Shown here: in pieces, positions 13,628-61,386 of the stretch | How the letters are laid out: each line of letters starts with the position of its first letter | Position numbering within the stretch: position 1 is the stretch's first letter | IMG/VR virus record: IMGVR_UViG_3300045988_107529 | Location: 16,779 to 80,778 of that record | DNA: 64,000 bases | Source: a virus | Reading direction: 5' to 3' (one strand) | Notes under the pieces: model-generated | Database searches by the model: none | What the model saw: only the letters and a program-made list of their open reading frames with translations | What the model was told of the DNA's origin: nothing | Made by a program: the position numbers and the translations under genes

Positions 13628-13700
13628 TGGGCTATCGCCAAACGGTTAAGGCACAGCACTTTGACTGCTATATTTGCTGGTTCGAATCCAGTTAGCCCAG
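13628..13700 (+). tRNA. tRNA-Gln (anticodon TTG)
   Basis: Hand-folded cloverleaf: TGGGCTA/TAGCCCA acceptor, GCC..GGC D-stem, loop CTTTGAC, GCTGG-TTCGAAT-CCAGT T-arm. Very similar to Bacillus tRNA-Gln as I remember it. No encoded CCA. Confidence 0.85.
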
Positions 13701-13850
13701 TTTGCGGTTTTGCTAACGCCGCAAGTTCATTTTATAACACTCTTTTCTGAAATCTAAAAGCGTTTCAGAAAACCTTTGTTGCGGTTGGTGGTCAAGAACT
13801 GCAACAGTGCCGGATTGTTTGTCATGGCGGTCAAATAATTCGGTATCTTA

Positions 13851-13923
13851 GGAAGCTTAGTTCAGCGGTAAGAGCAACGGCCTCATAAGCCGTAAGTCCT
13901 GGGTTCGAATCCCAGAGCTTCCA
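13851..13923 (+). tRNA. tRNA with CAT anticodon (elongator Met or Ile2/lysidine type)
   Basis: GGAAGCT/AGCTTCC acceptor, GTTC..GAGC D-arm, ACGGC-CTCATAA-GCCGT, CTGGG-TTCGAAT-CCCAG. Confidence 0.85.
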
Positions 13924-14216
13924 TTTCTTCTAAATGCCATTCATCCGTAATATGGGTGGAAAAAACTTCCAGTTGAGCGTGTGGATTAGGTAAATTTATA
14001 GGTGCGATACGGCGTAGCCTAAATGGATCTGATTTCCCGGCTGGTATATCTCGGAGTTAAAAACATTAACGCAGCGCACGTTAATAAAAGGAGTTTTCAA
14101 GAGATGCCGTTCAAAGACGCATAAAAATATCCAGTGAATCTACAGCACTAAAACTTGTAGATAGTGGAAAGCATAACACGATAAACCTATTGCTAACCCG
14201 GAAGAACCGGGTTATT

Positions 14217-14285
14217 CGGAAAGTGCAAGTAACTGGGAACGGGCTAGTCGACTAGGTCTTGATGGTTCGAATCCATCCTTTCCGA
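14217..14285 (+). ncRNA. tRNA-like element: acceptor stem plus T-arm, no foldable D/anticodon arms
   Basis: CGGAAAG...GATGG-TTCGAAT-CCATC-CTTTCCG-A. The interior contains only the palindrome CTAGTCGACTAG. 69 nt. Confidence 0.4.
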
Positions 14286-14444
14286 TTGTTTGGAGACTGA
14301 AAGTTTGGTGGTAGGAAAAGCACAGAGCAGTGCGTAGGAATGTATAACCGAGTTCCGAATACGTACTGTTTATCGGTGATATAGTGACTTCCTCTAGTAG
14401 TCAATAAGTGAACGTGCTGAAATGGTTCTTCCAAACATGTACAT

Positions 14445-14516
14445 AGCAGGATAGAGAAGCGGAATCTCGCATGGCTCATATCCATGAAAACGGCGGTTCG
14501 AATCCGTCTCCTGCTA
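14445..14516 (+). tRNA. second tRNA with CAT anticodon
   Basis: AGCAGGA/TCCTGCT acceptor, GAGA-AGCGGAA-TCTC, CATGG-CTCATAT-CCATG, GGCGG-TTCGAAT-CCGTC. Confidence 0.85.
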
Positions 14517-14575
14517 TTCCATCTACCAAGTGTAGATAGGAAATATGACTTTAGCATAGCTATTGTTGGTTTTTA

Positions 14576-14781: not shown

Positions 14782-14934
14782 TTATGTGATGCTTACAGCA
14801 ATCATTTTGGACATAACTGCTAAATTATGAAACCCAAAAGCATCATGAAATTTATGGGACGCTTACAGCAACTCACTTAAATAAAATCTAATTCGTATAT
14901 TTTATATTTTTTGTGTCCTGAAAGGAGAAGAAAC

Positions 14935-16386
14935 ATGGATTTTGCAAATGCAATGAAGGAAGAAAGCAAGTTTACAAGAACTGAAAACGGAGCAGTTGCG
15001 CTGAATACTACAAGTGATGCAAGACTTGACCTGTTCGGAACTATTGGTGCATTGAGAGAAGCTGATGAAAATAGAATCACCACTTTATTCTCAGAAGCAT
15101 TTGCACAGGATAAACTTTTTGCCACAAAGATTGCTTTTTATGCAAGAGATATTCGTTGTGGGCTTGGAGAGAGAAAAACTTTCCGAACCATTATCCGCTA
15201 CATGGCTGAACATCATCCAGAAGCACTCAGACCGAATCTTGATTTAATTGGAGTATTCGGGAGATACGATGATCTGTATGAACTGATTGAAACACCACTT
15301 GAAGATGACATGTGGAAATCTATGAAGAAACAATTTGAGGAAGATTTGAAAAATCTCAATGATGGAAAAGCAATTTCTTTACTTGCTAAATGGATTAAGA
15401 CTGCTGATGCAAGTAGCAGAGAAACTAGGAAGTTAGGAATCTTGACTGCACAGAAGTTGGGTTATCCAGTCTACAACTTTAAGAGAATTGTTCGTAGCAT
15501 GAGAAAACAGATCGGTGTTGTTGAAAGCCTTATGTCTGCCGGTAAATGGAATGAGATTAAATATCCAGAAGTTCCGAGCCGTGCAATGATGATTTATCGC
15601 AAGGCCTTTGCAAAACATGATCCAGATGGATTTAATGATTTTATTAATAAGGCTGATAAAGGAGAAGTTAAAATCAACGCTTCAACTTTGTATCCTTATG
15701 ACATCGTGGAAAAAATCCTTTACGGAAGAGAAAACAACAAAGTTCTTGAAGCACAGTGGAAAGCACTTCCAGATTATGTTGAACAGGGAACAAACGCACT
15801 CATAATGGCGGACGTATCTGGCTCAATGTATGGAAGACCAATGGCAACATCAATTGGACTAGCTATATATTTTGCCGAGAGAAACACAGGCGCATATCAT
15901 AATCTTTTTATGACTTTCTCGGCAAATCCACAGATTGTTACTTTGAAAGGAGAAACACTTTTTCAAAAGGTGAGAAATGTTAATAAGGCAGACTGGGGAA
16001 TGAATACAAACCTCAAAGCAGCATTCGAGAAAGTTCTTGATATTGCTGAAAAGAACAATATTTCACAAGAACAAATGCCAAAAGCTATCGTTGTAATTTC
16101 CGATATGGAAATTGATCGTTGCGGAAATAAGGACTGGTCTTTTTATGACAAAATGGAAAGTAAGTTTCGCAAAGCCGGATATGTTATTCCAAACATTATT
16201 TTCTGGAATGTCGAAAGCAGACATGATGTATTCCACGCGGACTCTACAAGGAAAGGCGTACAGCTTGCAAGTGGTCAGTCGGTGACAGTGTTCAAACAGG
16301 TGTTACAGAATCTTGGATACAATCCAATTGAAGCTATGGAGAACACGATCAATTCGGAAAGATACAATTGTATTACTGTCGAATGA
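14935..16386 (+). CDS. DUF2828-family protein with C-terminal vWA domain (MIDAS DxSxS)
   Basis: MDFANAMKEESKFTRTENGAVALNTTSDARLDLF... matches the DUF2828 N-terminus from memory. ALIMADVSGSMYGRPMATSIGLAIYFAE is a vWA MIDAS motif. AAAGGAGAAG RBS. Confidence 0.75.
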   Translation: MDFANAMKEESKFTRTENGAVALNTTSDARLDLFGTIGALREADENRITTLFSEAFAQDKLFATKIAFYARDIRCGLGERKTFRTIIRYMAEHHPEALRPNLDLIGVFGRYDDLYELIETPLEDDMWKSMKKQFEEDLKNLNDGKAISLLAKWIKTADASSRETRKLGILTAQKLGYPVYNFKRIVRSMRKQIGVVESLMSAGKWNEIKYPEVPSRAMMIYRKAFAKHDPDGFNDFINKADKGEVKINASTLYPYDIVEKILYGRENNKVLEAQWKALPDYVEQGTNALIMADVSGSMYGRPMATSIGLAIYFAERNTGAYHNLFMTFSANPQIVTLKGETLFQKVRNVNKADWGMNTNLKAAFEKVLDIAEKNNISQEQMPKAIVVISDMEIDRCGNKDWSFYDKMESKFRKAGYVIPNIIFWNVESRHDVFHADSTRKGVQLASGQSVTVFKQVLQNLGYNPIEAMENTINSERYNCITVE

Positions 16387-16446: not shown

Positions 16447-16518
16447 TGAAACATAGCTCAGTGGTAGAGCAATGATACTCAATATCATGTGACACAGGTT
16501 CGATTCCTGTTGTTTCTA
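16447..16518 (+). tRNA. tRNA with TCA anticodon (UGA-reading: suppressor / Trp-UCA-like), unusual C33 and T1:T72 mismatch
   Basis: TGAAACA..TGTTTCT acceptor (first pair mismatched), GCTC-AGTGGTA-GAGC, ATGAT-ACTCAAT-ATCAT, ACAGG-TTCGATT-CCTGT. Confidence 0.65.
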
Positions 16519-16564
16519 TCTGGCAAATTGCCATTGCCAGAAGTTGCATTTTCCCCCTTAAAGT

Positions 16565-16619
16565 TCCAGTGTTTCTCGTTGGGAGATTCATGCCGTTCAA
16601 GTCGGCACACTGGATTTTT
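16565..16619 (+). ncRNA. anticodon-arm-less mini tRNA-like hairpin ending in a T-run (also works as terminator of the tRNA unit)
   Basis: TCCAGTG-TT-TCTC-GTTGG-GAGA-TTCA-TGCCG-TTCAAGT-CGGCA-CACTGGA-TTTTT. Confidence 0.4.
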
Positions 16620-16636: not shown

Positions 16637-16786
16637 ATGAAAGAAAAATGTTGCAAGAATTGCAGAAGACATGATGACTTCACATGGGTTTGTTTCAATG
16701 GTGATAGCGAATATTGCGCAGACTTTACGGAGCCAGAGTGTTATTGTGAGTTTTGGGAGAGAAAAGAAGATGGAGATATGTGGTAA
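16637..16786 (+). CDS. 49-aa Cys-rich protein (not in ORF track)
   Basis: GAGGT RBS then ATG at 16637. Product is MKEKCCKNCRRHDDFTWVCFNGDSEYCADFTEPECYCEFWERKEDGDMW. Confidence 0.5.
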   Translation: MKEKCCKNCRRHDDFTWVCFNGDSEYCADFTEPECYCEFWERKEDGDMW

Positions 16787-19176: not shown

Positions 19177-19338
19177 ATGGTATGGTGCGAATTAAGAAAC
19201 ATTCCGTGCATACATCCAGAACCAGATGGATTAGAAAATTGCAGATATTGTGAAAAATATAGTTTTGAAAAATATTTAGAATACAAAAAATCAAAAAGAA
19301 AAGTCAAGAGAGCCAAAAAGGAGCGCCATTATGAGTGA
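19177..19338 (+). CDS. 53-aa Cys-containing basic-tailed protein (not in ORF track)
   Basis: MVWCELRNIPCIHPEPDGLENCRYCEKYSFEKYLEYKKSKRKVKRAKKERHYE. Its 3' end overlaps the rtcB start and contains the left copy of the 14-bp repeat. Confidence 0.45.
   Translation: MVWCELRNIPCIHPEPDGLENCRYCEKYSFEKYLEYKKSKRKVKRAKKERHYE
19302..19315 (+). repeat. left copy of 14-bp direct repeat AGTCAAGAGAGCCA flanking rtcB
   Basis: An identical 14-mer occurs at 20536-20549. Confidence 0.8.
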
Positions 19339-20533
19339 TTTGAAGATATTTACAGAAAAAATCGAGCAAGAAGCATTAAATCAAATTTATACACTAATAA
19401 AACAGCCTGCATTTTCTGAATGTAAAGTACGAATCATGCCAGATGTTCACGCAGGGGCAGGATGTGTAATTGGCTTTACAGCTGATCTTGGAGATAAAGT
19501 AATTCCGAACATTGTTGGAGTAGACATTGGATGCGGAATGCTCACAACACAAATTCCTACTGATGTGGGAACAATAGATTTTAAAATCCTTGACGAAGTG
19601 ATAAGAAATAATGTTCCGGCAGGAAGAAATGTACGTGACGAAATCATAAATTTTAAAGAATTAGAAGAACTTCACTGCTTTTCACTGCTTAAAAATGTTG
19701 AATGGATTCGCAGGAGTCTTGGTACACTTGGGGGAGGAAATCATTTTATTGAAGTTGACACCGATTCAAAAGGCATAAACTACCTTGTAATTCACACTGG
19801 AAGTCGTAACCTTGGAAAACAGGTAGCTGAAATATATCAAAAAATTGCCATAGAAGATATGCAGGGTACAGATAAGCTCGAAACTGAAATACAGAAATTA
19901 GTAAAAGAATACAAGTGCTCTGGCAGGCATAAGGAAATTCAAAATAGTATTGATGAATTAAAACGAAAATGGAAGCCAGACAAACTTGGAATTCCGAAAG
20001 AACTATGTTATTTGACAGGTGAGCATAGAAGACAATATCTGCATGATATGAAAATCTGTCAAGAATTTGCAAGAATAAACAGAAGATGCATACAGTCAGC
20101 TATATTCTACACTATGAATTGGACACTTCAAAGAAACACATGGTTTGACACAATTCATAATTATATTGACCACGATACAAATATTGTTCGGAAAGGTGCG
20201 ATATCAGCTAAACATGGTGAAAAAGTTCTTATCCCTATGAATATGCGAGATGGATGTATTATTGCAATTGGAAAAGGAAATGAGGATTGGAACTGTTCAG
20301 CCCCGCATGGCGCAGGGCGTATTATGAGCCGATCAAAAGCAAAAGAAAACATTTCGTTAGAAGAATTTAAGGAGTCTATGAATGGGATATATACAACATC
20401 CGTTCAGAAATCTACAATTGACGAAAGCCCTATGGCTTACAAACCGCCGCAAGAAATTATTGATAAAATCAAAGATACCGTAGATATAGTTGATATTATT
20501 AAACCTGTATATAATTTCAAAGCAAGTGAATAA
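19331..20533 (+). CDS. rtcB: RtcB RNA 3'-phosphate ligase
   Basis: MPDVHAGAGCVIGF, GGGNHFIE, HTGSRNLG and CSAPHGAGR are the RtcB metal-binding and His-GMP motifs. 400 aa. Confidence 0.9.
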   Translation: MSDLKIFTEKIEQEALNQIYTLIKQPAFSECKVRIMPDVHAGAGCVIGFTADLGDKVIPNIVGVDIGCGMLTTQIPTDVGTIDFKILDEVIRNNVPAGRNVRDEIINFKELEELHCFSLLKNVEWIRRSLGTLGGGNHFIEVDTDSKGINYLVIHTGSRNLGKQVAEIYQKIAIEDMQGTDKLETEIQKLVKEYKCSGRHKEIQNSIDELKRKWKPDKLGIPKELCYLTGEHRRQYLHDMKICQEFARINRRCIQSAIFYTMNWTLQRNTWFDTIHNYIDHDTNIVRKGAISAKHGEKVLIPMNMRDGCIIAIGKGNEDWNCSAPHGAGRIMSRSKAKENISLEEFKESMNGIYTTSVQKSTIDESPMAYKPPQEIIDKIKDTVDIVDIIKPVYNFKASE

Positions 20534-34892: not shown

Positions 34893-35285
34893 ATGAGAGG
34901 ATTAGTCCGTCAAAAGCAAAAAGTATATTGGTCACGAATAACAGAAAAAACAGAAGGATTAGACCGTATTAAAGTTTATGAGAAACCAGTTCTGTTCTCT
35001 TTTTCTGTATCATCTACAGCCGGAACGCCAGAAGAAATCGCAGCCGGAATAGTGCCAGATTATGATAGGTACATTACAAGCTTTAATCGAAATTTTCATC
35101 CACAGGAAGCGGACATATTTTGGGTAGACAGAATCCCACAAATAAGCGAGGATGGAAGCCTTATTTTGGACGAAAATGGAGAACCCACAGTATTGCCAGA
35201 CTACACACTAAAGAAGATTTTAGACACACAAAAAGGCAATATTGCCACATACGGAATTTCTAAAAGAGGAAACGAAGATGGGTAA
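34893..35285 (+). CDS. putative head-tail joining protein
   Basis: 130 aa. Called by position upstream of the tail genes only. Confidence 0.35.
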   Translation: MRGLVRQKQKVYWSRITEKTEGLDRIKVYEKPVLFSFSVSSTAGTPEEIAAGIVPDYDRYITSFNRNFHPQEADIFWVDRIPQISEDGSLILDENGEPTVLPDYTLKKILDTQKGNIATYGISKRGNEDG

Positions 35286-35796
35286 GACAATAAAATGCGA
35301 CTTATCCACGAAATCTATTCAAAATGCCATCAACAAATTAAAAGTTTACCAAAATGAGCTACAGAGGAAAAATGAGATTTTTGTAAAACGATTGGCTGAA
35401 ATCGGGTTGGATGTTATTCAAACGACCATGGAGTCAATCCCGGATGAAGAAAAAGGTTCTTACTATACAGAAATCATCAACGATCAAAACGGAAATATCG
35501 TCGGGGCTTCTGTTAGACTATCTGGTGAAAAAGTGTTGTTCATTGAATTTTCAGCAGGAATAACATACGGTACAAATGATTATCCTTTATCTAGTGGAAA
35601 TTCTTACGGAATGGGAACATATCCTTCCAAAAAAGAAAAATCAGACTGGGACAATCCAAACGGATGGTGGTACACAGATGAAAGTGGACGTCCGCACCAT
35701 TCATATGGAAATAGAGCGTATATGCCTATGTATCACGCAGAACAAGCCATTATTATTGCCGTTCGTAAAATTGCCAAAGAGGTGTTCTCTTCTTAA
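35278..35796 (+). CDS. putative neck/head-tail protein
   Basis: Start at MGKTIKCDLS, overlapping the upstream stop. Called by position only. Confidence 0.35.
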   Translation: MGKTIKCDLSTKSIQNAINKLKVYQNELQRKNEIFVKRLAEIGLDVIQTTMESIPDEEKGSYYTEIINDQNGNIVGASVRLSGEKVLFIEFSAGITYGTNDYPLSSGNSYGMGTYPSKKEKSDWDNPNGWWYTDESGRPHHSYGNRAYMPMYHAEQAIIIAVRKIAKEVFSS

Positions 35797-35800
35797 AGAA

Positions 35801-35825
35801 GATACCATAATATACTGAATGATAC
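35801..35825 (+). promoter_or_regulatory. conserved 25-nt box, copy B
   Basis: GATACCATAATATACTGAATGATAC, then TGTTATCAT (extended -10, 35836-35844), then a terminator. Confidence 0.6.
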
Positions 35826-35872
35826 TAAACAATTATGTTATCATTACAGTGTTAAATTGTAGCATAACATGC

Positions 35873-35907
35873 AATGCGTTCACTATAAAGGTGAGTGCAT
35901 TTTTTTA
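35873..35907 (+). terminator. intrinsic terminator after box B
   Basis: AATGCGTTCAC-tataaag-GTGAGTGCATT followed by TTTTTT. Confidence 0.7.
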
Positions 35908-35923
35908 TTGTGAGGTGACAGAT

Positions 35924-36328
35924 ATGCCAGACACAATAGAATCTCCTGTATTAGAAGTTTTTTCAAGATGGGGAGCGGCTGTTTCTAAGATTACTGGCGC
36001 AGACAATTATTCCATGGATGGCAGTGAAACAAATGCTTCCGGTAAAAAAGCATATGCACAGCTTTATATGCTCGGGAATCCAATTACAAGAGGTGACCTT
36101 GAAGGGGATGAATGCGCAACAATGCCATCATTTCAAGTAAATTGCTTCACCTCTGGGAGCAAAGCACTAACCAGAGTGTATGAATTAGATAAGATAAGTC
36201 ACAAAGCTATGGTGAGCATGGGGTTCCATCGCACATACGGACCGGAGCCTATGTTTTTTGGTGACAGTGGAATCAAAAAGCTTGTGAGCCGATACAGCCG
36301 AATATATACAGGAACTTTATTAGATTAG
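35924..36328 (+). CDS. putative tail completion / tail terminator-position protein
   Basis: Start at MPDTIESPV behind GAGGTG. The track start at 35819 runs through box B and its terminator. Confidence 0.4.
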   Translation: MPDTIESPVLEVFSRWGAAVSKITGADNYSMDGSETNASGKKAYAQLYMLGNPITRGDLEGDECATMPSFQVNCFTSGSKALTRVYELDKISHKAMVSMGFHRTYGPEPMFFGDSGIKKLVSRYSRIYTGTLLD

Positions 36329-37653: not shown

Positions 37654-38048
37654 CTTTTCGAGAAGTTGTTTACCAAGAGATTCTTCCTTTATACCTCTCT
37701 ATCGGTGTATCTAAAGAAGAATTTATGGATTCTACTCCGGCTGAGTTAAAACCTTATCTCGAAGCTGAAAAGATACGGCAAAAGAGAAAAGACACTGAGC
37801 TTTGGCAAGCGGGCATTTATGAAACATCAGCCACATTCACAGCTGTTGCAAATGCTTTAATTGGAAAAAAATCCAAGGCAGAGTATTTGAAGAAACCTTT
37901 GCTCGAATCAGCAGAGGAAGAAAAGCGTAAACAGGAAGGTATATTTTCCGAAGAAGAAAAGAAAAAACAGAGAAACGCACTTTTGGCAAGCTTGCAACTC
38001 ATGCAGGCGAACTTTGAACTTAACCATGAAAAGGGCAGGCAGGATTAA
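37225..38048 (+). CDS. tail assembly chaperone G-T fusion via -1 frameshift near 37638-37644
   Basis: CAC AAA AAG AAA AAT TAA at the end of G. The -1 frame is open from well upstream through 38048. Confidence 0.55.
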
Positions 38049-38074
38049 CACTCTTGTCTGCCCTTTATTTTTTT
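38031..38074 (+). terminator. intrinsic terminator between chaperone and tape measure genes
   Basis: AAGGGCAG...CTGCCCTT followed by TATTTTTTT. Confidence 0.55.
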
Positions 38075-38097
38075 GTAAAAAAGGAGGGACAAATAAA

Positions 38098-41000
38098 ATG
38101 GCTGACAATACCATTGATACCCTTGATATACAAATTAGCAGTAGTACAGAAAAAGCAGTACGCGCGCTGACTAATCTTTCAAACAAACTCACAGAAGTTA
38201 ATTCCGCATTAAGCGGAGTTAATACAAATGGGCTACGTAGTTGTGTAAGGGAACTTGGAAAACTAAAAGAACTTGATATAGGGAAAATGACAAGCATTGC
38301 TGATGGAATTGGAAAATTCTCAAATTCCATAAAGACAATGGGTGAAGTAGATTATAAAGGTTCTGGACTGAATGCAGTTATCAACTCAATCAACAGACTT
38401 AGCCAGGTTGATGCTAGTGGATTTGATTCTGGAAAACTTGGAGAAATAATCCATCAATTAAGCAATTTGACAGAGATTCCAGATGTATCTACCAGTGTTA
38501 ATCGTTTTGTCAATTCAATGGCTAGATTAGCCAATTCCGGTGAATATATTGCAAATGTATCCGCTGAATTACCTGGGCTTGGAAGAAATCTTAAATCAAT
38601 CGTAGAGAGCTTTACGAGCGTTGGCGATATATCTGAACCTGTAAATAGGTTAGTTCAGTCTATTGCACAATTGGCAAGTTCTGGAAATAGAATCGGACAA
38701 ACGTCAAGCCAGCTTGGAACACTAGCAAAGGAAGTATTGTCTTTCTTCGATGTAATGAAAACTGCACCTAAAATCAGTGAGAACACCATCCGCATGACGG
38801 AAGCACTGGCAAAGTTGGCTAATGCAGGGGGAAAGGTAAATTCCGCTACAAATTCTATATCCAGTGCGTTTTCTAAATTATCATCTGCAACATCTAGCCT
38901 TGGTAATATTGTTAGTAAAACTTCTTCTATAATTGGAACCGGGGTAAAAGGCATTATTGGATGGTTTCAACGCCTTGGAAATGGTAGCTCTGGAATTAAA
39001 ACTGCTTCTTTTAATCTCGGAAATTTGCTTAAAACTGCTATCGGTTTTAAGGCTATTCGTGGTCTGGCAAATTTAGGAAAAAGTGCAATTGGTTTTGGCT
39101 CTGCTATTACAGAAATCGAAAATGTTGTAGATGTTTCCTTTGGAAGCATGGCAGATGAAGCCTACAAATTTGCTTCTACGGCTAAAGAACAATTTGGATT
39201 ATCCGAATTGGCAGCAAAGCAATATTCTGGAACCATGATGGCAATGATGAAATCATCTGGTGTTGCGCAAGATGCAGCTTCTAAAATGTCAATTTCTCTT
39301 GCTGGATTAGCCGGGGATATTGCATCATTTTACAACATTGATACCGATACTGCTTTTCAGAAAATACGCGCTGGAATTTCCGGGGAAATTGAGCCTTTAA
39401 GACAATTGGGTATTAATTTATCCGTTGCAAACATGGAAGCTTACGCCCTTTCAAGGGGAATTACAACATCTTATAATGCAATGTCCCAAGCTGAAAAAGT
39501 TGCTCTTCGATACAACTATTTAATGTCAGTTACAGGAGATGTGCAAGGGGATTTCGCCAGGACAAGCGGCACCTGGGCGAACCAGGTTCGTTTACTCACT
39601 CTGAACTTCCAGTCACTTTCCGCAGTAATCGGGCAAGGTTTGATTGCTGGCATTCTTCCTGCTATTCAAGCTCTCAATGCGCTTATGTCAAAACTTATGC
39701 AAGCTGCGAATGTGTTCCGTAACTTCATGTATGTATTGATGGGAAAGAAGCTGAAAGGATCACAGGGTGGAGTTAGCGATATTGTATCTAACTTAGGGGG
39801 TATAGAAACAGCCGGTGATGATGCTTCTTCCGGGCTTGATGACGCTACATCATCTGCAAAGAAGCTGAAAAAGGCACTTTCTGTATTACCATTCGACCAA
39901 TTAAATCAGCTTGCTGATAACTCAAACGATTCCGGGACTGCATCTAAAAGCCTTGGTTCTGGACTTGGCGATTTGGCTGATAGCTTTGCAGGAATACAAG
40001 ATTCCTTGGACGAAGTTTTGACTGTCGATGAAACACCTATTAACAAATGGGCTTCCAAAATTAGAAAAGCATTCCTGGCGAAAGACTGGGAGGGTGTAGG
40101 AACTACTATTGCCGATATGCTTAATCTCGGAATGAGCAAGGTGTATGAGGTTATTAACTGGAAAAATGTTGCCCCGAAAATAACTGAGTTTACAGACGCA
40201 TTTACAAGAGCATTCAATTCATTAAATACCAGACTTGATTTTGACTTGCTTGGAAGAACTATCGGGACGGGAATCAACACAGCTGTAAATACTCTTAATC
40301 AGCTTATTGGTGATGGCGGTATTGATTTTGGATTAATCGGCAGAAATATTGGTGATGGGTTAATCGGCGCACTGGATGAAATCAACTGGACTAATCTGGG
40401 TGAATTGCTTGGAAATAAGTTTATGATTTCCTGGAAAATGCTATCTGGATTTGTAAAACGTATGTCAGAAGAGGACGGTGCTGGTGTAACTGGTTGGGAT
40501 AAGCTTGGTAGTTCACTTGGAAAAGCTTTAAATGGCGCTGTGTCCAAAATTTCCATGAAGGATATTGCAGATTCTTTATCTGGAATTTTAAATGGAGCGT
40601 TTAGAAGCTTGGCTGCGTTTACCAAAACTGTAAACTGGGATGAACTTACTAATAATATCACAGAGGGAATTTCTACTTTCTTGAAAAAAACAAACTGGAA
40701 AGAAAATGGACAAGCACTTGGAGATTTCATATCTCACCTGTGTACGGCGTTGAAAAATACGCTTACAAAAGACACTTTCTATGAATTTGGACAAGGAGTT
40801 GGAACATTCCTTGGTGAATTACCATGGGGTGAAATCCTTAGTACCGCAGCTGATCTGCTATTAACTGGTCTTACCAGTGCATTAAACGGATTATTCGATG
40901 GATTAGAGGAAAAGCACCCGATAGCCGGACATATTGCAGAATGGCTTACAAAAGCATTTATTGCAGTAAAAATAGCAAATATTACAGGTATTGGAACTCT

Positions 41001-42762
41001 TGTTGGTTCACTTGTGGGACATATTGCAGGAAAAATAGCTGAAAAGAAAAATGCAGAACTAATTGCAGATAAACTTGCAACTGTTTTAGGAGATGGAACA
41101 AGTGGAGCAAAAGAAGCAATAAAAGATTTAGGGGATGAAGCAGAAGCAGCAGGAAATGGCGGGTTTACTACACTTGCAGAAAAGATAAAAAATCTCGGTG
41201 ATGTCGCACAAACAGCTGGTGGACAATTCCAAGGATTTTGGGGATACGCAACCAATTTGGGTGCGACTGCATTTGTCGTGGAAGGTCTTGGACAGGTAAA
41301 AAAAGCTATGGACTTTAAAGATTCCACAGCTGACGCATTCAACGATTTTGAAGTTGTTAGAAAAGCATTGAAAATCATCGAAGACCAAACTGGAATCTCT
41401 GGTGATAAACTTATCGGACTTGGCGGTGATTTAAAAAATGTGAAAGACAATGCATTTGATTTTGATGGACAGCTCCAAACTGTAGAAACATCACTTGAAA
41501 ATCTCGGAATTTCTTCTGATACATTTAAGCAAGCATTAAAACAAGCAATGGAGGAATCTGATACCTCTACAAATTCTCATGTAAGCAATATTAATGAATA
41601 TATCGGTACGATGGGGACAGAATTTGATAATGCGAAATCTGCACTGGAAAGACTTTCAGATCAAGCAGTAATCACTCCAACGCAGTTTGATGAATTAAGT
41701 ACTGTCCTTCAACAGCAAGAATCATCTGGTGCAACAGCTAGAGCTGCATTCCAAGCATTGATGGATAAAATGGCAGAGATGGGAATTGACACAAGAAAAG
41801 TTATAAAAGCTTTTTCAGAAGATGTTCCGAAAGCTTCATCAACAATGAGCAAATCAGTTGCAACAGCATCCGAATCCGTATCATCCAAGACAAAAACTGG
41901 CTTTGGTCTCGCCAATACCGCCGTAAGTACGGCAATGGCTGGGATGAAAAAAAGCACAGAAAGCACAATGCCTTCTATTTGGTCGAAGATAAAGAACACG
42001 AATGATGATGTTGAAACCAACTCTAAAACCAACTGGGAAAATTCTGCAAGTGCTGTATCGACAGCCCTCGGAACCATGGACACCGATACAAAAGATGTAA
42101 TGGGTAAAGTTATGACAACCATCCAAAGTTATTGGTCTTCCGTTCTTATCAATACAAACCAGATTTGGGAAAAGGCTTCTGGAAAAGTTGACACGGAAAC
42201 TGGAAAAATGAAAACCTACACAGAATCTAATTTGTCGGGGATTTCGGATAAAATTAAAAGACTATTTAATGTTAATCTTACATCAATTGGTCGGGAAACG
42301 GCTCAATCATTTGCCGATGGCATGAAACAAGTGCACTTGCCAACTCTGACTTATTATATTTCAGAGTGGAGAAAACATGATCTTGGTGGTGGAAGAACCA
42401 GTTCTACACCAGTTTACAAGCCTAATTGGTACGCCAAAGGTGGTCTTTTCAACGGCGCACAGGTAATCGGTATCGGTGAAGCCGGTTCCGAAGCCGTTCT
42501 TCCTCTGGAAAATCCACGAACCATGAAGAAGATCGCAGACAGCATTGTTTCTAGTTCGGACGGAAGCATGGGACTTACAAAAGAAGAAATGGCAAAAGCA
42601 GTAGCACAGGGCGTTGCAATGGCAATGAGTATGAACAGCGGAAATAACAATCCGCAGTACATTATGAATAGCATTATTCTGGACGGAAGCGAGATTGCAA
42701 AAGCAGTAACAAAAGCCCAAAATGATACAGATAGCCGTTTCAAACCGTCCCCGGCATATTGA
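38098..42762 (+). CDS. tape measure protein
   Basis: 1554 aa from MADNTIDTLDIQ, behind AAAGGAGGG. It is long, helical and Ala/Ser/Gly-rich, with the typical position. Confidence 0.85.
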   Translation: MADNTIDTLDIQISSSTEKAVRALTNLSNKLTEVNSALSGVNTNGLRSCVRELGKLKELDIGKMTSIADGIGKFSNSIKTMGEVDYKGSGLNAVINSINRLSQVDASGFDSGKLGEIIHQLSNLTEIPDVSTSVNRFVNSMARLANSGEYIANVSAELPGLGRNLKSIVESFTSVGDISEPVNRLVQSIAQLASSGNRIGQTSSQLGTLAKEVLSFFDVMKTAPKISENTIRMTEALAKLANAGGKVNSATNSISSAFSKLSSATSSLGNIVSKTSSIIGTGVKGIIGWFQRLGNGSSGIKTASFNLGNLLKTAIGFKAIRGLANLGKSAIGFGSAITEIENVVDVSFGSMADEAYKFASTAKEQFGLSELAAKQYSGTMMAMMKSSGVAQDAASKMSISLAGLAGDIASFYNIDTDTAFQKIRAGISGEIEPLRQLGINLSVANMEAYALSRGITTSYNAMSQAEKVALRYNYLMSVTGDVQGDFARTSGTWANQVRLLTLNFQSLSAVIGQGLIAGILPAIQALNALMSKLMQAANVFRNFMYVLMGKKLKGSQGGVSDIVSNLGGIETAGDDASSGLDDATSSAKKLKKALSVLPFDQLNQLADNSNDSGTASKSLGSGLGDLADSFAGIQDSLDEVLTVDETPINKWASKIRKAFLAKDWEGVGTTIADMLNLGMSKVYEVINWKNVAPKITEFTDAFTRAFNSLNTRLDFDLLGRTIGTGINTAVNTLNQLIGDGGIDFGLIGRNIGDGLIGALDEINWTNLGELLGNKFMISWKMLSGFVKRMSEEDGAGVTGWDKLGSSLGKALNGAVSKISMKDIADSLSGILNGAFRSLAAFTKTVNWDELTNNITEGISTFLKKTNWKENGQALGDFISHLCTALKNTLTKDTFYEFGQGVGTFLGELPWGEILSTAADLLLTGLTSALNGLFDGLEEKHPIAGHIAEWLTKAFIAVKIANITGIGTLVGSLVGHIAGKIAEKKNAELIADKLATVLGDGTSGAKEAIKDLGDEAEAAGNGGFTTLAEKIKNLGDVAQTAGGQFQGFWGYATNLGATAFVVEGLGQVKKAMDFKDSTADAFNDFEVVRKALKIIEDQTGISGDKLIGLGGDLKNVKDNAFDFDGQLQTVETSLENLGISSDTFKQALKQAMEESDTSTNSHVSNINEYIGTMGTEFDNAKSALERLSDQAVITPTQFDELSTVLQQQESSGATARAAFQALMDKMAEMGIDTRKVIKAFSEDVPKASSTMSKSVATASESVSSKTKTGFGLANTAVSTAMAGMKKSTESTMPSIWSKIKNTNDDVETNSKTNWENSASAVSTALGTMDTDTKDVMGKVMTTIQSYWSSVLINTNQIWEKASGKVDTETGKMKTYTESNLSGISDKIKRLFNVNLTSIGRETAQSFADGMKQVHLPTLTYYISEWRKHDLGGGRTSSTPVYKPNWYAKGGLFNGAQVIGIGEAGSEAVLPLENPRTMKKIADSIVSSSDGSMGLTKEEMAKAVAQGVAMAMSMNSGNNNPQYIMNSIILDGSEIAKAVTKAQNDTDSRFKPSPAY

Positions 42763-43023
42763 TTTTTGACTGATTGTGTGGTATGATTTCTTTAATGAAG
42801 AAGTACACACGGTTTTGATTTTTGAGCCGCTAAGAAGAAATTAATATTTCTCGATTTTGAGGAATTTTTATCTTACTTGGCGGCTCTTTTTTATTTTAAC
42901 CGTTAATTTTGGTAAAACCAACAGGCTAGACCGATCATCGAAAAGCGGAAATGCCTTGCCGCCTGCCTGTTGATTTACATACAGTTCAAGGCACTCTTTT
43001 ATACGAAAGGCAGGTATCAATCT

Positions 43024-60999: not shown

Positions 61000-61007
61000 C
61001 AAAAAAA

Positions 61008-61036
61008 CTGACAGGAGTGCTGTCCTATCAGTTTTT
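61008..61036 (+). terminator. intrinsic terminator
   Basis: CTGACAGGA-gtgc-TGTCCTATCAG (one mismatch) followed by TTTTT. Confidence 0.55.
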
Positions 61037-61386
61037 GCCTAAATTTGTTTACCTTATGTGTTTTGCAGACGGAACGCACTTGTTCAGTCACATAAGCAGC
61101 ACCAAATGTTTCTTGAAACACTTCGCCACTTACGCAGTTTTAGTTCTGCGATTGAGTAAAAAAAGATTAGCTGCCCATTAGTTGGCGAATGTAGGAATTT
61201 TACCTATAAAAGTAAAATTGCTTAACGGTCTTTGGTAACGCAGGTTACTCTGCTTGCGACCTACAATAAGGAACAGGGCAAATTCAAAAGTTGGGTCAAA
61301 GCAAACAACTCCTTTCATTGCCCATTATTTGGGTATGAAATAATTTTAACACATAGGAAAAATATTTTCAATGCAAGAAAGGTAAG

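Follow-up and report, generated by a model that had tools for sequence, protein, structure and literature searches.

A phage tRNA gene with a UCA anticodon allele and a polymorphic anticodon loop beside a Ro60-like gene in a standard-code gut phage

A 64,000-nt stretch of phage DNA (the window; positions 16,779 to 80,778 of IMG/VR virus record IMGVR_UViG_3300045988_107529) carries, at 16447-16518, a tRNA gene whose anticodon, UCA, is complementary to the stop codon UGA. We propose, with a probability of roughly 45%, that its product is a tRNA-shaped RNA which is selected for its body and works in an RNA module with the product of an adjacent Ro60-like gene, the UCA anticodon being an incidental, tolerated state of a loop that is either unconstrained or diversifying. 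This reading is based on the standard genetic code of the phage, on five loop alleles which share one tRNA body, are scattered among related phages, and include a commonest allele that should not be chargeable, and on the contrast between a constrained body, with compensatory base pairs, and a free loop. It also draws on apparent nondecoders which occupy the same site in relatives, on a nearby armless tRNA-like element, and on a neighboring protein with a predicted Ro60 fold. A preliminary description, made from the sequence of the window, had put forward an opal suppressor or Trp-UCA tRNA; the anticodon polymorphism, the Ro60-like neighbor, and the other intergenic tRNA-like RNAs, which we regard as the most informative facts, were absent from it.

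A complete cloverleaf in a standard-code phage

The gene in question is the following.

16447-16518, + strand: class-I tRNA gene, anticodon UCA, U1·U72, A73, no encoded CCA (ARAGORN, Rfam RF00005)

ARAGORN called a 72-nt tRNA here (anticodon tca), one of four in the window, and Rfam model RF00005 matched it with 57.7 bits (gathering score 29; E = 7.7e-10 over 64 kb) in an alignment which covered the full model and flagged 1:72 as the sole nonstandard pair. Read directly, the RNA is UGAAACA-UA-GCUC-AGUGGUA-GAGC-A-AUGAU-ACUCAAU-AUCAU-GUGAC-ACAGG-UUCGAUU-CCUGU-UGUUUCU-A. The acceptor stem (UGAAACA/UGUUUCU) includes U1·U72 and is followed by the discriminator A73; the D arm is GCUC-AGUGGUA-GAGC, the anticodon stem AUGAU/AUCAU, the variable loop GUGAC (5 nt), and the T arm ACAGG-UUCGAUU-CCUGU, and the anticodon loop at 16477-16483 (+) reads A32 C33 U34 C35 A36 A37 U38. 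This is the 7/4/5/5-bp cloverleaf of a canonical elongator tRNA with all of the usual tertiary nucleotides (U8, A14, G15/C48, the D-loop GG, and the T-loop UUCGAUU). The window's copy departs from a canonical tRNA in having C33 instead of U33 and U1·U72 instead of a Watson-Crick pair, and other alleles of the gene have U33 and/or A1:U72. The preliminary description had reported the UCA anticodon, C33, the T:T at 1:72, and the arms, and by ARAGORN, Rfam, and direct reading every one of these details was right.

Selenocysteine tRNAs (tRNA-Sec) have 8/5 or 9/4 acceptor/T stems, a long variable arm, and a 6-bp D stem. This identity was ruled out by the 7/5 acceptor/T stems and the 5-nt variable loop, with RF00005 the best model of its clan; the 'SeC' label given by ARAGORN is merely its name for any tca anticodon. 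The exact tRNA sequence of the window was found in 10 related loci, and because >100 independent phage contigs have this tRNA, identical or nearly so, at the same position, the gene is not a product of chance. We conclude that the tRNA gene is genuine and under selection for its structure.

The phage uses the standard code, as had been described. In a crude gene call of 97 open reading frames (ORFs), 52 ended in TAA, 30 in TGA (~31%), and 15 in TAG; TGA terminates the portal gene, the 1582-aa ORF, the 1520-aa ORF, and the Ro60-like gene, and the median in-frame extension past the stop of TGA-ended ORFs to the next stop is 9 codons. Reading TGA as sense gained no more ORF coverage than reading TAA as sense, and it merged no two substantial + strand ORFs in the window save for a chance adjacency at 35818/35819. 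We rejected the corresponding read-through fusion (35564-35818 with 35819-36328), these being adjacent genes in different contexts. In the same region, 35242-36328 (+), ORF 35242-35796 is overlapped, in another frame, by an 85-codon open stretch (35564-35818) that enters ORF 35819-36328. The arrangement could be due to chance or to a tail-chaperone-like programmed frameshift. Outside the window, in ~15-20 kb read from contigs with identical window proteins, there were no TGA-joined ORFs, and across the whole genome no real gene requires TGA read-through. Among the neighboring genes scanned there was no release factor and no synthetase, TrpRS included, although the search was not exhaustive.

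The terminase, portal, tail-size/giant ORFs, and endolysin are all intact; the structural ORF previously given as '1554 aa' is 38014-42762 under a different start choice, and it is intact under the standard code. With these late genes whole and a third of all genes stopping at TGA, a role in timing late-gene expression, as proposed for suppressor tRNAs of recoded phages, is not supported. Nor is the idea of a relic from a recoded ancestor, since all examined relatives use the standard code and the UCA allele lies 1-2 substitutions from a commoner UGA-anticodon allele in one population. What survives of the opal suppressor or Trp-UCA proposal is the real UCA tRNA, the standard code, and a plausible link to Trp. 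Pre-adaptation to recoding is likewise not supported: TGA ends 4 of 146 genes (2.7%) in published standard-code precursors of TGA recoding, and in the window it is not depleted (31%).

Anticodon alleles and selection on the tRNA body

In the window, the Ro60-like gene ends in TGA 60 nt 5' of the tRNA. Across 80 related loci, the site ~55-60 nt past this gene (hereafter the slot) always holds a tRNA or tRNA-like gene, whose identity varies. Group A comprises the occupants with exactly the window's tRNA body, and these come with five loop alleles at nt 33-35 (contig counts cover all of IMG/VR).

Loop AUUGAAU, nt 33-35 UUG: anticodon UGA with U33; the commonest allele
Loop ACUCAAU, nt 33-35 CUC: anticodon UCA with C33, the form in the window; 41 IMG/VR contigs
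Loop AUCCAAU, nt 33-35 UCC: anticodon CCA (Trp); 4 IMG/VR contigs
Loop AUUCAAU, nt 33-35 UUC: anticodon UCA with canonical U33; 2 IMG/VR and 4 metagenome contigs
Loop ACUGAAU, nt 33-35 CUG: anticodon UGA with C33; 2 IMG/VR contigs

The polymorphic sites which define these alleles are 16478 (position 33) and 16480 (position 35). The five alleles form a network linked by single steps with U33-UCA as its hub, and this hub is rare, accounting for 2 of the 43 IMG/VR contigs with a UCA anticodon. Each major allele is seen with either U1 or A1, and mismatches at 1:72 are frequent. In the adjacent gene's tree, UCA and UGA alleles are interleaved, from which it follows that they recombine or recur, and that they co-circulate; an apparent association of alleles along the Ro60-like gene proved to be merely haplotype structure. 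This natural anticodon polymorphism is the most unusual trait of the tRNA. Because UCA is one of five anticodon variants in a standard-code population, a code switch is very unlikely, and we conclude that this phage does not use the UCA anticodon to reassign or time TGA.

We compared variation in the tRNA with that in its surroundings, scoring a site as polymorphic when its minor allele occurred in at least 3 of 38 group A loci.

tRNA: 5/72 sites polymorphic
Hairpin directly 3' of the tRNA: 1/23
Armless tRNA-like element: 3/50
Third codon positions of the upstream Ro60-like gene: 38%
5' spacer: 22/60

Within the tRNA, the only intermediate-frequency polymorphisms are those at nt 33 and 35. Between group A and a second set of slot tRNAs, group B, compensatory double changes have occurred at 7 of 21 base pairs, two of them in the anticodon stem, and 94.7% of cells are paired; therefore, the cloverleaf is under selection, anticodon stem included. 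These comparisons indicate that purifying selection acts on the fold, namely, on the acceptor, D, and T arms and the elbow, and that variation at loop positions 33-35 appears close to that of neutral sites. In a tRNA that decodes, the opposite would be expected, with the anticodon constrained.

The commonest allele is instructive in this respect, as it joins a Ser anticodon (UGA) to a class-I body. Bacterial SerRS requires a long variable arm, an established identity rule, and we know of no synthetase other than SerRS that reads NGA anticodons, so this allele should be uncharged. Its body is conserved as in the other alleles.

Other occupants of the slot extend the pattern. Group B has the loop AUUGUAA with a Thr-type anticodon (UGU) and rare variants with UGC or UCU anticodons. 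Group C shares the acceptor, D, and T arms of group B but has an anticodon stem of 3-4 bp or a loop of 5 nt, e.g., CACU-ACAAA-AGUG, and the short stem keeps a compensatory change (variant CGC-UACAAAU-GCG). Judged by these sequences, group C RNAs would be unable to decode, and the slot thus seems to tolerate nondecoders. Still other relatives have a canonical class-II Ser(GCU) tRNA in the slot, either alone or beside group C forms. In seven loci (L006, L044, L051, L060, L066, L068, and L080), an odd 78-80-nt tRNA-like gene, called by ARAGORN with a two-base 'anticodon' (tt), lies ~330-480 nt past the Ro60-like gene in the same intergenic region.

The Ro60-like neighbor, the RNA island, and the carriers

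The surrounding features of the window are as follows.

14911-16386, + strand: Ro60-like protein, helical-repeat TROVE-like domain plus vWA domain (Pfam DUF2828 and DUF7788/VWA_2; PHROG 850)
16519-16541, + strand: hairpin with an 8-bp stem and loop AUUGCCA, abutting the discriminator base (terminator-like hit, stem covariation)
16565-16614, + strand: armless tRNA-like element, 50 nt (minimum free energy fold, z = -3.2; compensatory pairs)
16637-16786, + strand: small Cys-rich (zinc-finger-like) ORF, first gene after the RNA module, intact in the window (translations)
19331-20533, + strand: RtcB RNA ligase, accessory gene just upstream of terminase (Pfam RtcB 1.2e-62; PHROG tRNA-splicing ligase)
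13628-14517, + strand: tRNA cluster Gln(UUG), Met(CAU), Met(CAU), on the other side of the Ro60-like gene (ARAGORN; Rfam 58-71 bits)

The Ro60-like gene probably starts at ATG 14935, since its homologues are 483 aa long, and PHROG 850 is annotated as 'RNA-binding protein'. An AF2 model built on an alignment of 126 diverse homologues had a mean confidence (pLDDT) of 95.7, compared with 38.9 for a single-sequence model. In Foldseek, the top 11 PDB hits of this model were all Ro60/TROVE proteins matched over their full length (TM 0.41-0.61; E 1e-7 to 4e-5): Xenopus and human Ro60, Deinococcus Rsr, and the Ro60 of Thermus phage phiLo (including 1yvr, 2i91, 9kop, and 2nvo). The predicted architecture is that of Ro60, a helical-repeat ring with a C-terminal vWA domain bearing a metal-binding MIDAS motif, DxSxS (D301, S303, S305), which is invariant in the 126 homologues. 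Pfam TROVE did not match the protein, which hit only DUF2828, DUF7788, and VWA, and sequence and profile searches of the PDB returned vWA proteins only, with no Ro60 chain; the relation of this DUF2828/DUF7788 protein to Ro60 is visible by modeled fold only. The DUF2828 plus DUF7788 family has ~6,700 representatives at E <= 0.001 (clusters at 50% identity), and the literature searched contained no functional study of DUF2828. In three loci, the gene, otherwise intact, has an in-frame TGA at an Arg codon: L024 (~1124 nt before the gene end), which carries the UCA tRNA, and L072 and L074 (~1460 nt), which are without any slot tRNA.

Directly 3' of whichever tRNA fills the slot stands the hairpin, followed in most variants by a U-rich tract. 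Its stem covaries (CUGGCAA/UUGCCAG, CCAAUGA/UCAUUGG, CCUACGA/UCGUAGG, and CCAGUGA/UCACUGG) while the loop keeps A-UGC-A, and it may be a terminator. In relative L171, the hairpin loop appears as its reverse complement (TGGCAAT for ATTGCCA), as though inverted across the stem.

The armless element begins 47 nt downstream of the tRNA and lies ~20 nt 5' of the ribosome-binding site of the next ORF, with AUUUUU directly 3'. Its outer stem is acceptor-like; inside this are a D-like hairpin (loop GUUGG) and a T-arm (loop UUCAAGU), the latter stacked on it. Two sequence types differ by 5 compensatory pairs, with 99.5% of cells paired, and the element is present in 71 of 81 related loci and in >117 IMG/VR contigs; no Rfam family matched it. 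It might serve in attenuation or antitermination, or as a Y-RNA-like module. RtcB is encoded farther on, 2.8 kb downstream of the tRNA.

In the upstream cluster, the homologues, in related phages, of the second Met(CAU) tRNA (14444-14517, +) share its acceptor stem, AGCAGGA/UCCUGCU, but have Arg-type anticodons (CCU, UCU), which makes this a second slot with an anticodon shift on a conserved body. Between the two Met tRNAs, at 14217-14285 (+), is a subthreshold tRNA-like match (27.1 bits vs a gathering score of 29); relatives have an 84-92-nt tRNA-Tyr(GUA) near this site, and the match may be a decayed copy of it. Elsewhere in the window, Rfam gave a strong match to FuFi-1 RNA, a small RNA without an assigned function, at 61002-61189 (-; 136.9 bits) and a match to int-alpA RNA at 42919-42991 (+; 45.4 bits vs a gathering score of 35.8), just past the 1582-aa ORF.

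No close match to the window was found among deposited phage genomes. More than 100 IMG/VR contigs of 40-85 kb encode the Ro60-like protein at 83-95% identity, and its relatives number thousands in total; the carriers, gut phages of ~80 kb, form an abundant family. The host is probably a member of the Lachnospiraceae, because copies of the Ro60-like gene at 65-84% identity sit in Lachnospiraceae genomes and metagenome-assembled genomes, including an isolate of Diplocloster hominis. In the replication module of a close relative, L162, beyond the 3' end of the window (L162 20677-20738), we noted a protein with an Anti-Pycsar Apyc1/metallo-beta-lactamase domain; the phage group therefore carries known counterdefense genes.

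Possible functions of the slot RNA

In the mechanism we favor, the slot RNA would be transcribed with or just after the Ro60-like gene and excised by RNase P and RNase Z, and CCA would then be added. It would act via its tRNA shape, partnering the Ro60-like protein or serving as its substrate, by analogy with YrlA and Ro60, or, alternatively, offering a handle to tRNA-binding host enzymes. The slot RNA might thereby form part of an RNA quality-control, repair, or counterdefense module which RtcB joins in some genomes, and C33 and the weak 1:72 pair would hold opal suppression tolerably low where a third of genes stop at TGA. There are precedents for such a module. Bacterial and phage Ro60 genes adjoin Y RNAs with a tRNA-like domain (YrlA), and the Salmonella operon rsr-yrlBA-rtcBA holds RtcB as well (Chen et al. 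2014, PMC4201824); in the Thermus phage phiLo, a phage Ro60 is found with Yrl RNAs (PMC12135203). The island in the window resembles these systems in that a gene of predicted Ro60 fold lies beside small RNAs with tRNA-like D and T arms, a domain seen in both the full tRNA and the armless element, and in that RtcB is part of the island. It differs in that the protein belongs to DUF2828/DUF7788 rather than Pfam TROVE, its pairing with the RNA is putative, and the RNA is a complete cloverleaf of normal topology, whereas YrlA is a permuted tRNA-like domain on a Ro-binding stem.

Several observations weigh against our proposal. The partnership between the Ro60-like protein and the slot tRNA is drawn by analogy, and the tRNA has no Ro-binding stem formed from its 5' and 3' ends: its flanks do not extend the acceptor stem, the Ro-binding helix with a conserved bulge is lacking, and the Rfam Y-RNA families gave no match at E <= 10. 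Unlike the Ro60/YrlA association, the association with a tRNA fails in distant DUF2828 loci (65-84% identity, Lachnospiraceae), only a minority of which have an adjacent tRNA or RtcB, and none of 80 distant DUF2828 loci matched a covariance model of the armless element. A general pairing of protein and RNA is thus not supported. Even among the 81 related loci, RtcB is present in only ~24 (absent from ~70%), independent of the tRNA allele. The UCA tRNA also has A37, a 5-bp anticodon stem, a 7-nt loop, and all tertiary pairs, and a fully canonical tRNA could enter translation. The CCA allele and a likeness to phage tRNA-Trp suggest a decoding ancestry, and the rarity of the hub allele U33-UCA fits selection against efficient suppression, which would imply that slot RNAs reach the ribosome. 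Finally, the three variable loop sites fit neutrality and diversifying selection alike.

The main rival to a body-based role, which we consider possible but improbable, is that the tRNA is an attenuated Trp-type opal suppressor. It would be charged, probably with Trp by the host TrpRS (C35, A36), and would read UGA (and UGG) at a low level, its efficiency curbed by C33, U1·U72, and A73; it might lengthen certain proteins of phage or host, restore nonsense variants, or represent a first step toward code 4. The canonical cloverleaf and anticodon arm are what such a tRNA would need. The same body carries a CCA anticodon in 4 IMG/VR contigs, and it resembles the phage tRNA-Trp(CCA) of L014/L015 in U1·U72, the D arm, and most of the anticodon stem. 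Over a set of ~260 phage tRNAs, similarity to Lys, Met, Trp, and Thr tRNAs was in every case 52-55/72 identities, which does not separate the isotypes. C35 and A36 are major Trp determinants and G73 is the bacterial Trp determinant at the discriminator; the phage tRNA-Trp has G73, whereas every group A allele has A73. As U33 is required for the U-turn, C33 should weaken decoding, and the scarcity of U33-UCA (2/43) relative to C33-UCA would fit selection against strong suppression. The commonest allele combines a UGA anticodon with a class-I body, which makes no sense for decoding.

We also looked for traces of suppression in phage genes, counting in-frame TGA codons where orthologues have sense codons in a clustered comparison. 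The zinc-finger-like ORF has a TGA at codon 10 in five UCA-allele contigs (L001, L014, L016, L018, and L024), which favors suppression, but the five share one haplotype and hence represent one event. In L047, the same ORF has an in-frame TGA at the Trp-17 codon, and the C33 UGA-anticodon tRNA of that locus cannot suppress it. Overall, there were 3 events in 16 UCA-allele loci versus ~11 in 65 loci without a UCA tRNA; in-frame TGA variants are no more common in UCA-allele phages than in other relatives, and permissive suppression is therefore not supported. The lack of any gene requiring read-through and the undepleted TGA stops point the same way. It has been proposed that standard-code phages carrying TGA suppressor tRNAs are precursors of recoding; recoded gut phages carry suppressor tRNAs, and their standard-code relatives rarely carry TGA-suppressor tRNAs (Borges et al., bioRxiv 10.1101/2021.08.26.457843). 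The present case is similar in being a class-I UCA phage tRNA with a likely Firmicutes host on the standard code and possible Trp ancestry, and dissimilar in that there is no in-frame TGA, TGA is not depleted, C33 replaces the universal U33, and the anticodon is polymorphic within the population (UGA > UCA > CCA). The allele series itself, in which CCA, UCA, and UGA anticodons are linked by single substitutions, recalls classical suppressor genetics and opal suppressors made in the laboratory. Those arise by anticodon mutation, e.g., of tRNA-Trp from CCA to UCA; here, by contrast, the polymorphism is natural, at high frequency, and in wild phages, and the stop-reading allele nearly always has C33.

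A role in counterdefense, which we regard as unlikely, would explain the loop differently: the tRNA would be a bait or decoy for a host tRNA-cleaving nuclease, or a resistant replacement for its target, with an arms race diversifying the loop and RtcB resealing cleaved RNA where present. Variation is indeed concentrated at nt 33-35 on a conserved body, the occupant of the slot changes rapidly between close relatives (Ser(GCU), Thr(UGU), and short-arm forms), RtcB and the Ro60-like protein are in the same island, and at least one anticodon nuclease fails to cleave once any change is made in the anticodon. Neutralization of PARIS, retron, and other tRNA-targeting systems by phage tRNAs is known, with anticodon-loop variants, T5 tRNA-Lys against PARIS, and tRNA-Tyr with a retron as examples (PMC10264068, PMC11464382, PMC11555353), and the deviant anticodon loop and the RNA ligase in the same genome are shared with these. 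In the known cases, however, the anticodon is kept, its neighbors are altered, and the tRNA still decodes; here, the anticodon itself varies among UGA, UCA, and CCA, which is useless or harmful for decoding, and the commonest allele is without a plausible synthetase. A decoy would also be expected to imitate a host tRNA in its anticodon loop. In addition, the host nuclease is hypothetical, and RtcB is uncoupled from the allele and mostly absent.

Two further explanations seem less probable still. The gene could be a decaying tRNA paralogue, a neutral or mildly harmful variant without function in this lineage, as polymorphism in the loop (2-3 of 7 positions) is close to that of neutral sites and 1:72 is often mismatched. 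We think this quite improbable: conservation of the body far exceeds that of synonymous and spacer sites, compensatory changes maintain all four helices, and the allele reaches high frequency across many samples and more than one background, several in all. The other, a long shot in our estimation, is that slot RNAs are poorly chargeable or unchargeable tRNA mimics that trip the host's sensors of uncharged tRNA, chiefly T-box riboswitches, which are abundant in Firmicutes, and possibly RelA. The anticodon would then pick the host regulon (UGA, Ser; CCA and, by wobble, UCA, Trp; UGU, Thr; GCU, Ser), and selection that differs between hosts or nutritional states would maintain the polymorphism. 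Such a role would explain the conserved elbow and acceptor end, the free choice of anticodon, and the unchargeable commonest allele.

Phage stop-reading tRNAs are usually taken as markers of a code switch, and the present case shows that this call can mislead, because one gene bears Ser-, stop-, and Trp-type anticodons in a wholly standard-code population. If the tRNA is instead an attenuated suppressor, these phages would represent a natural population between a harmless tRNA and an opal suppressor, in which the efficient form is apparently selected against, and they would offer direct material on how code reassignment begins. If, as we propose, the RNA is selected for its body, the partnership of Ro60 with tRNA-like RNAs would extend to the large, unannotated DUF2828/DUF7788 family and would reach abundant phages of the human gut, and two small structured RNAs would gain a testable role.

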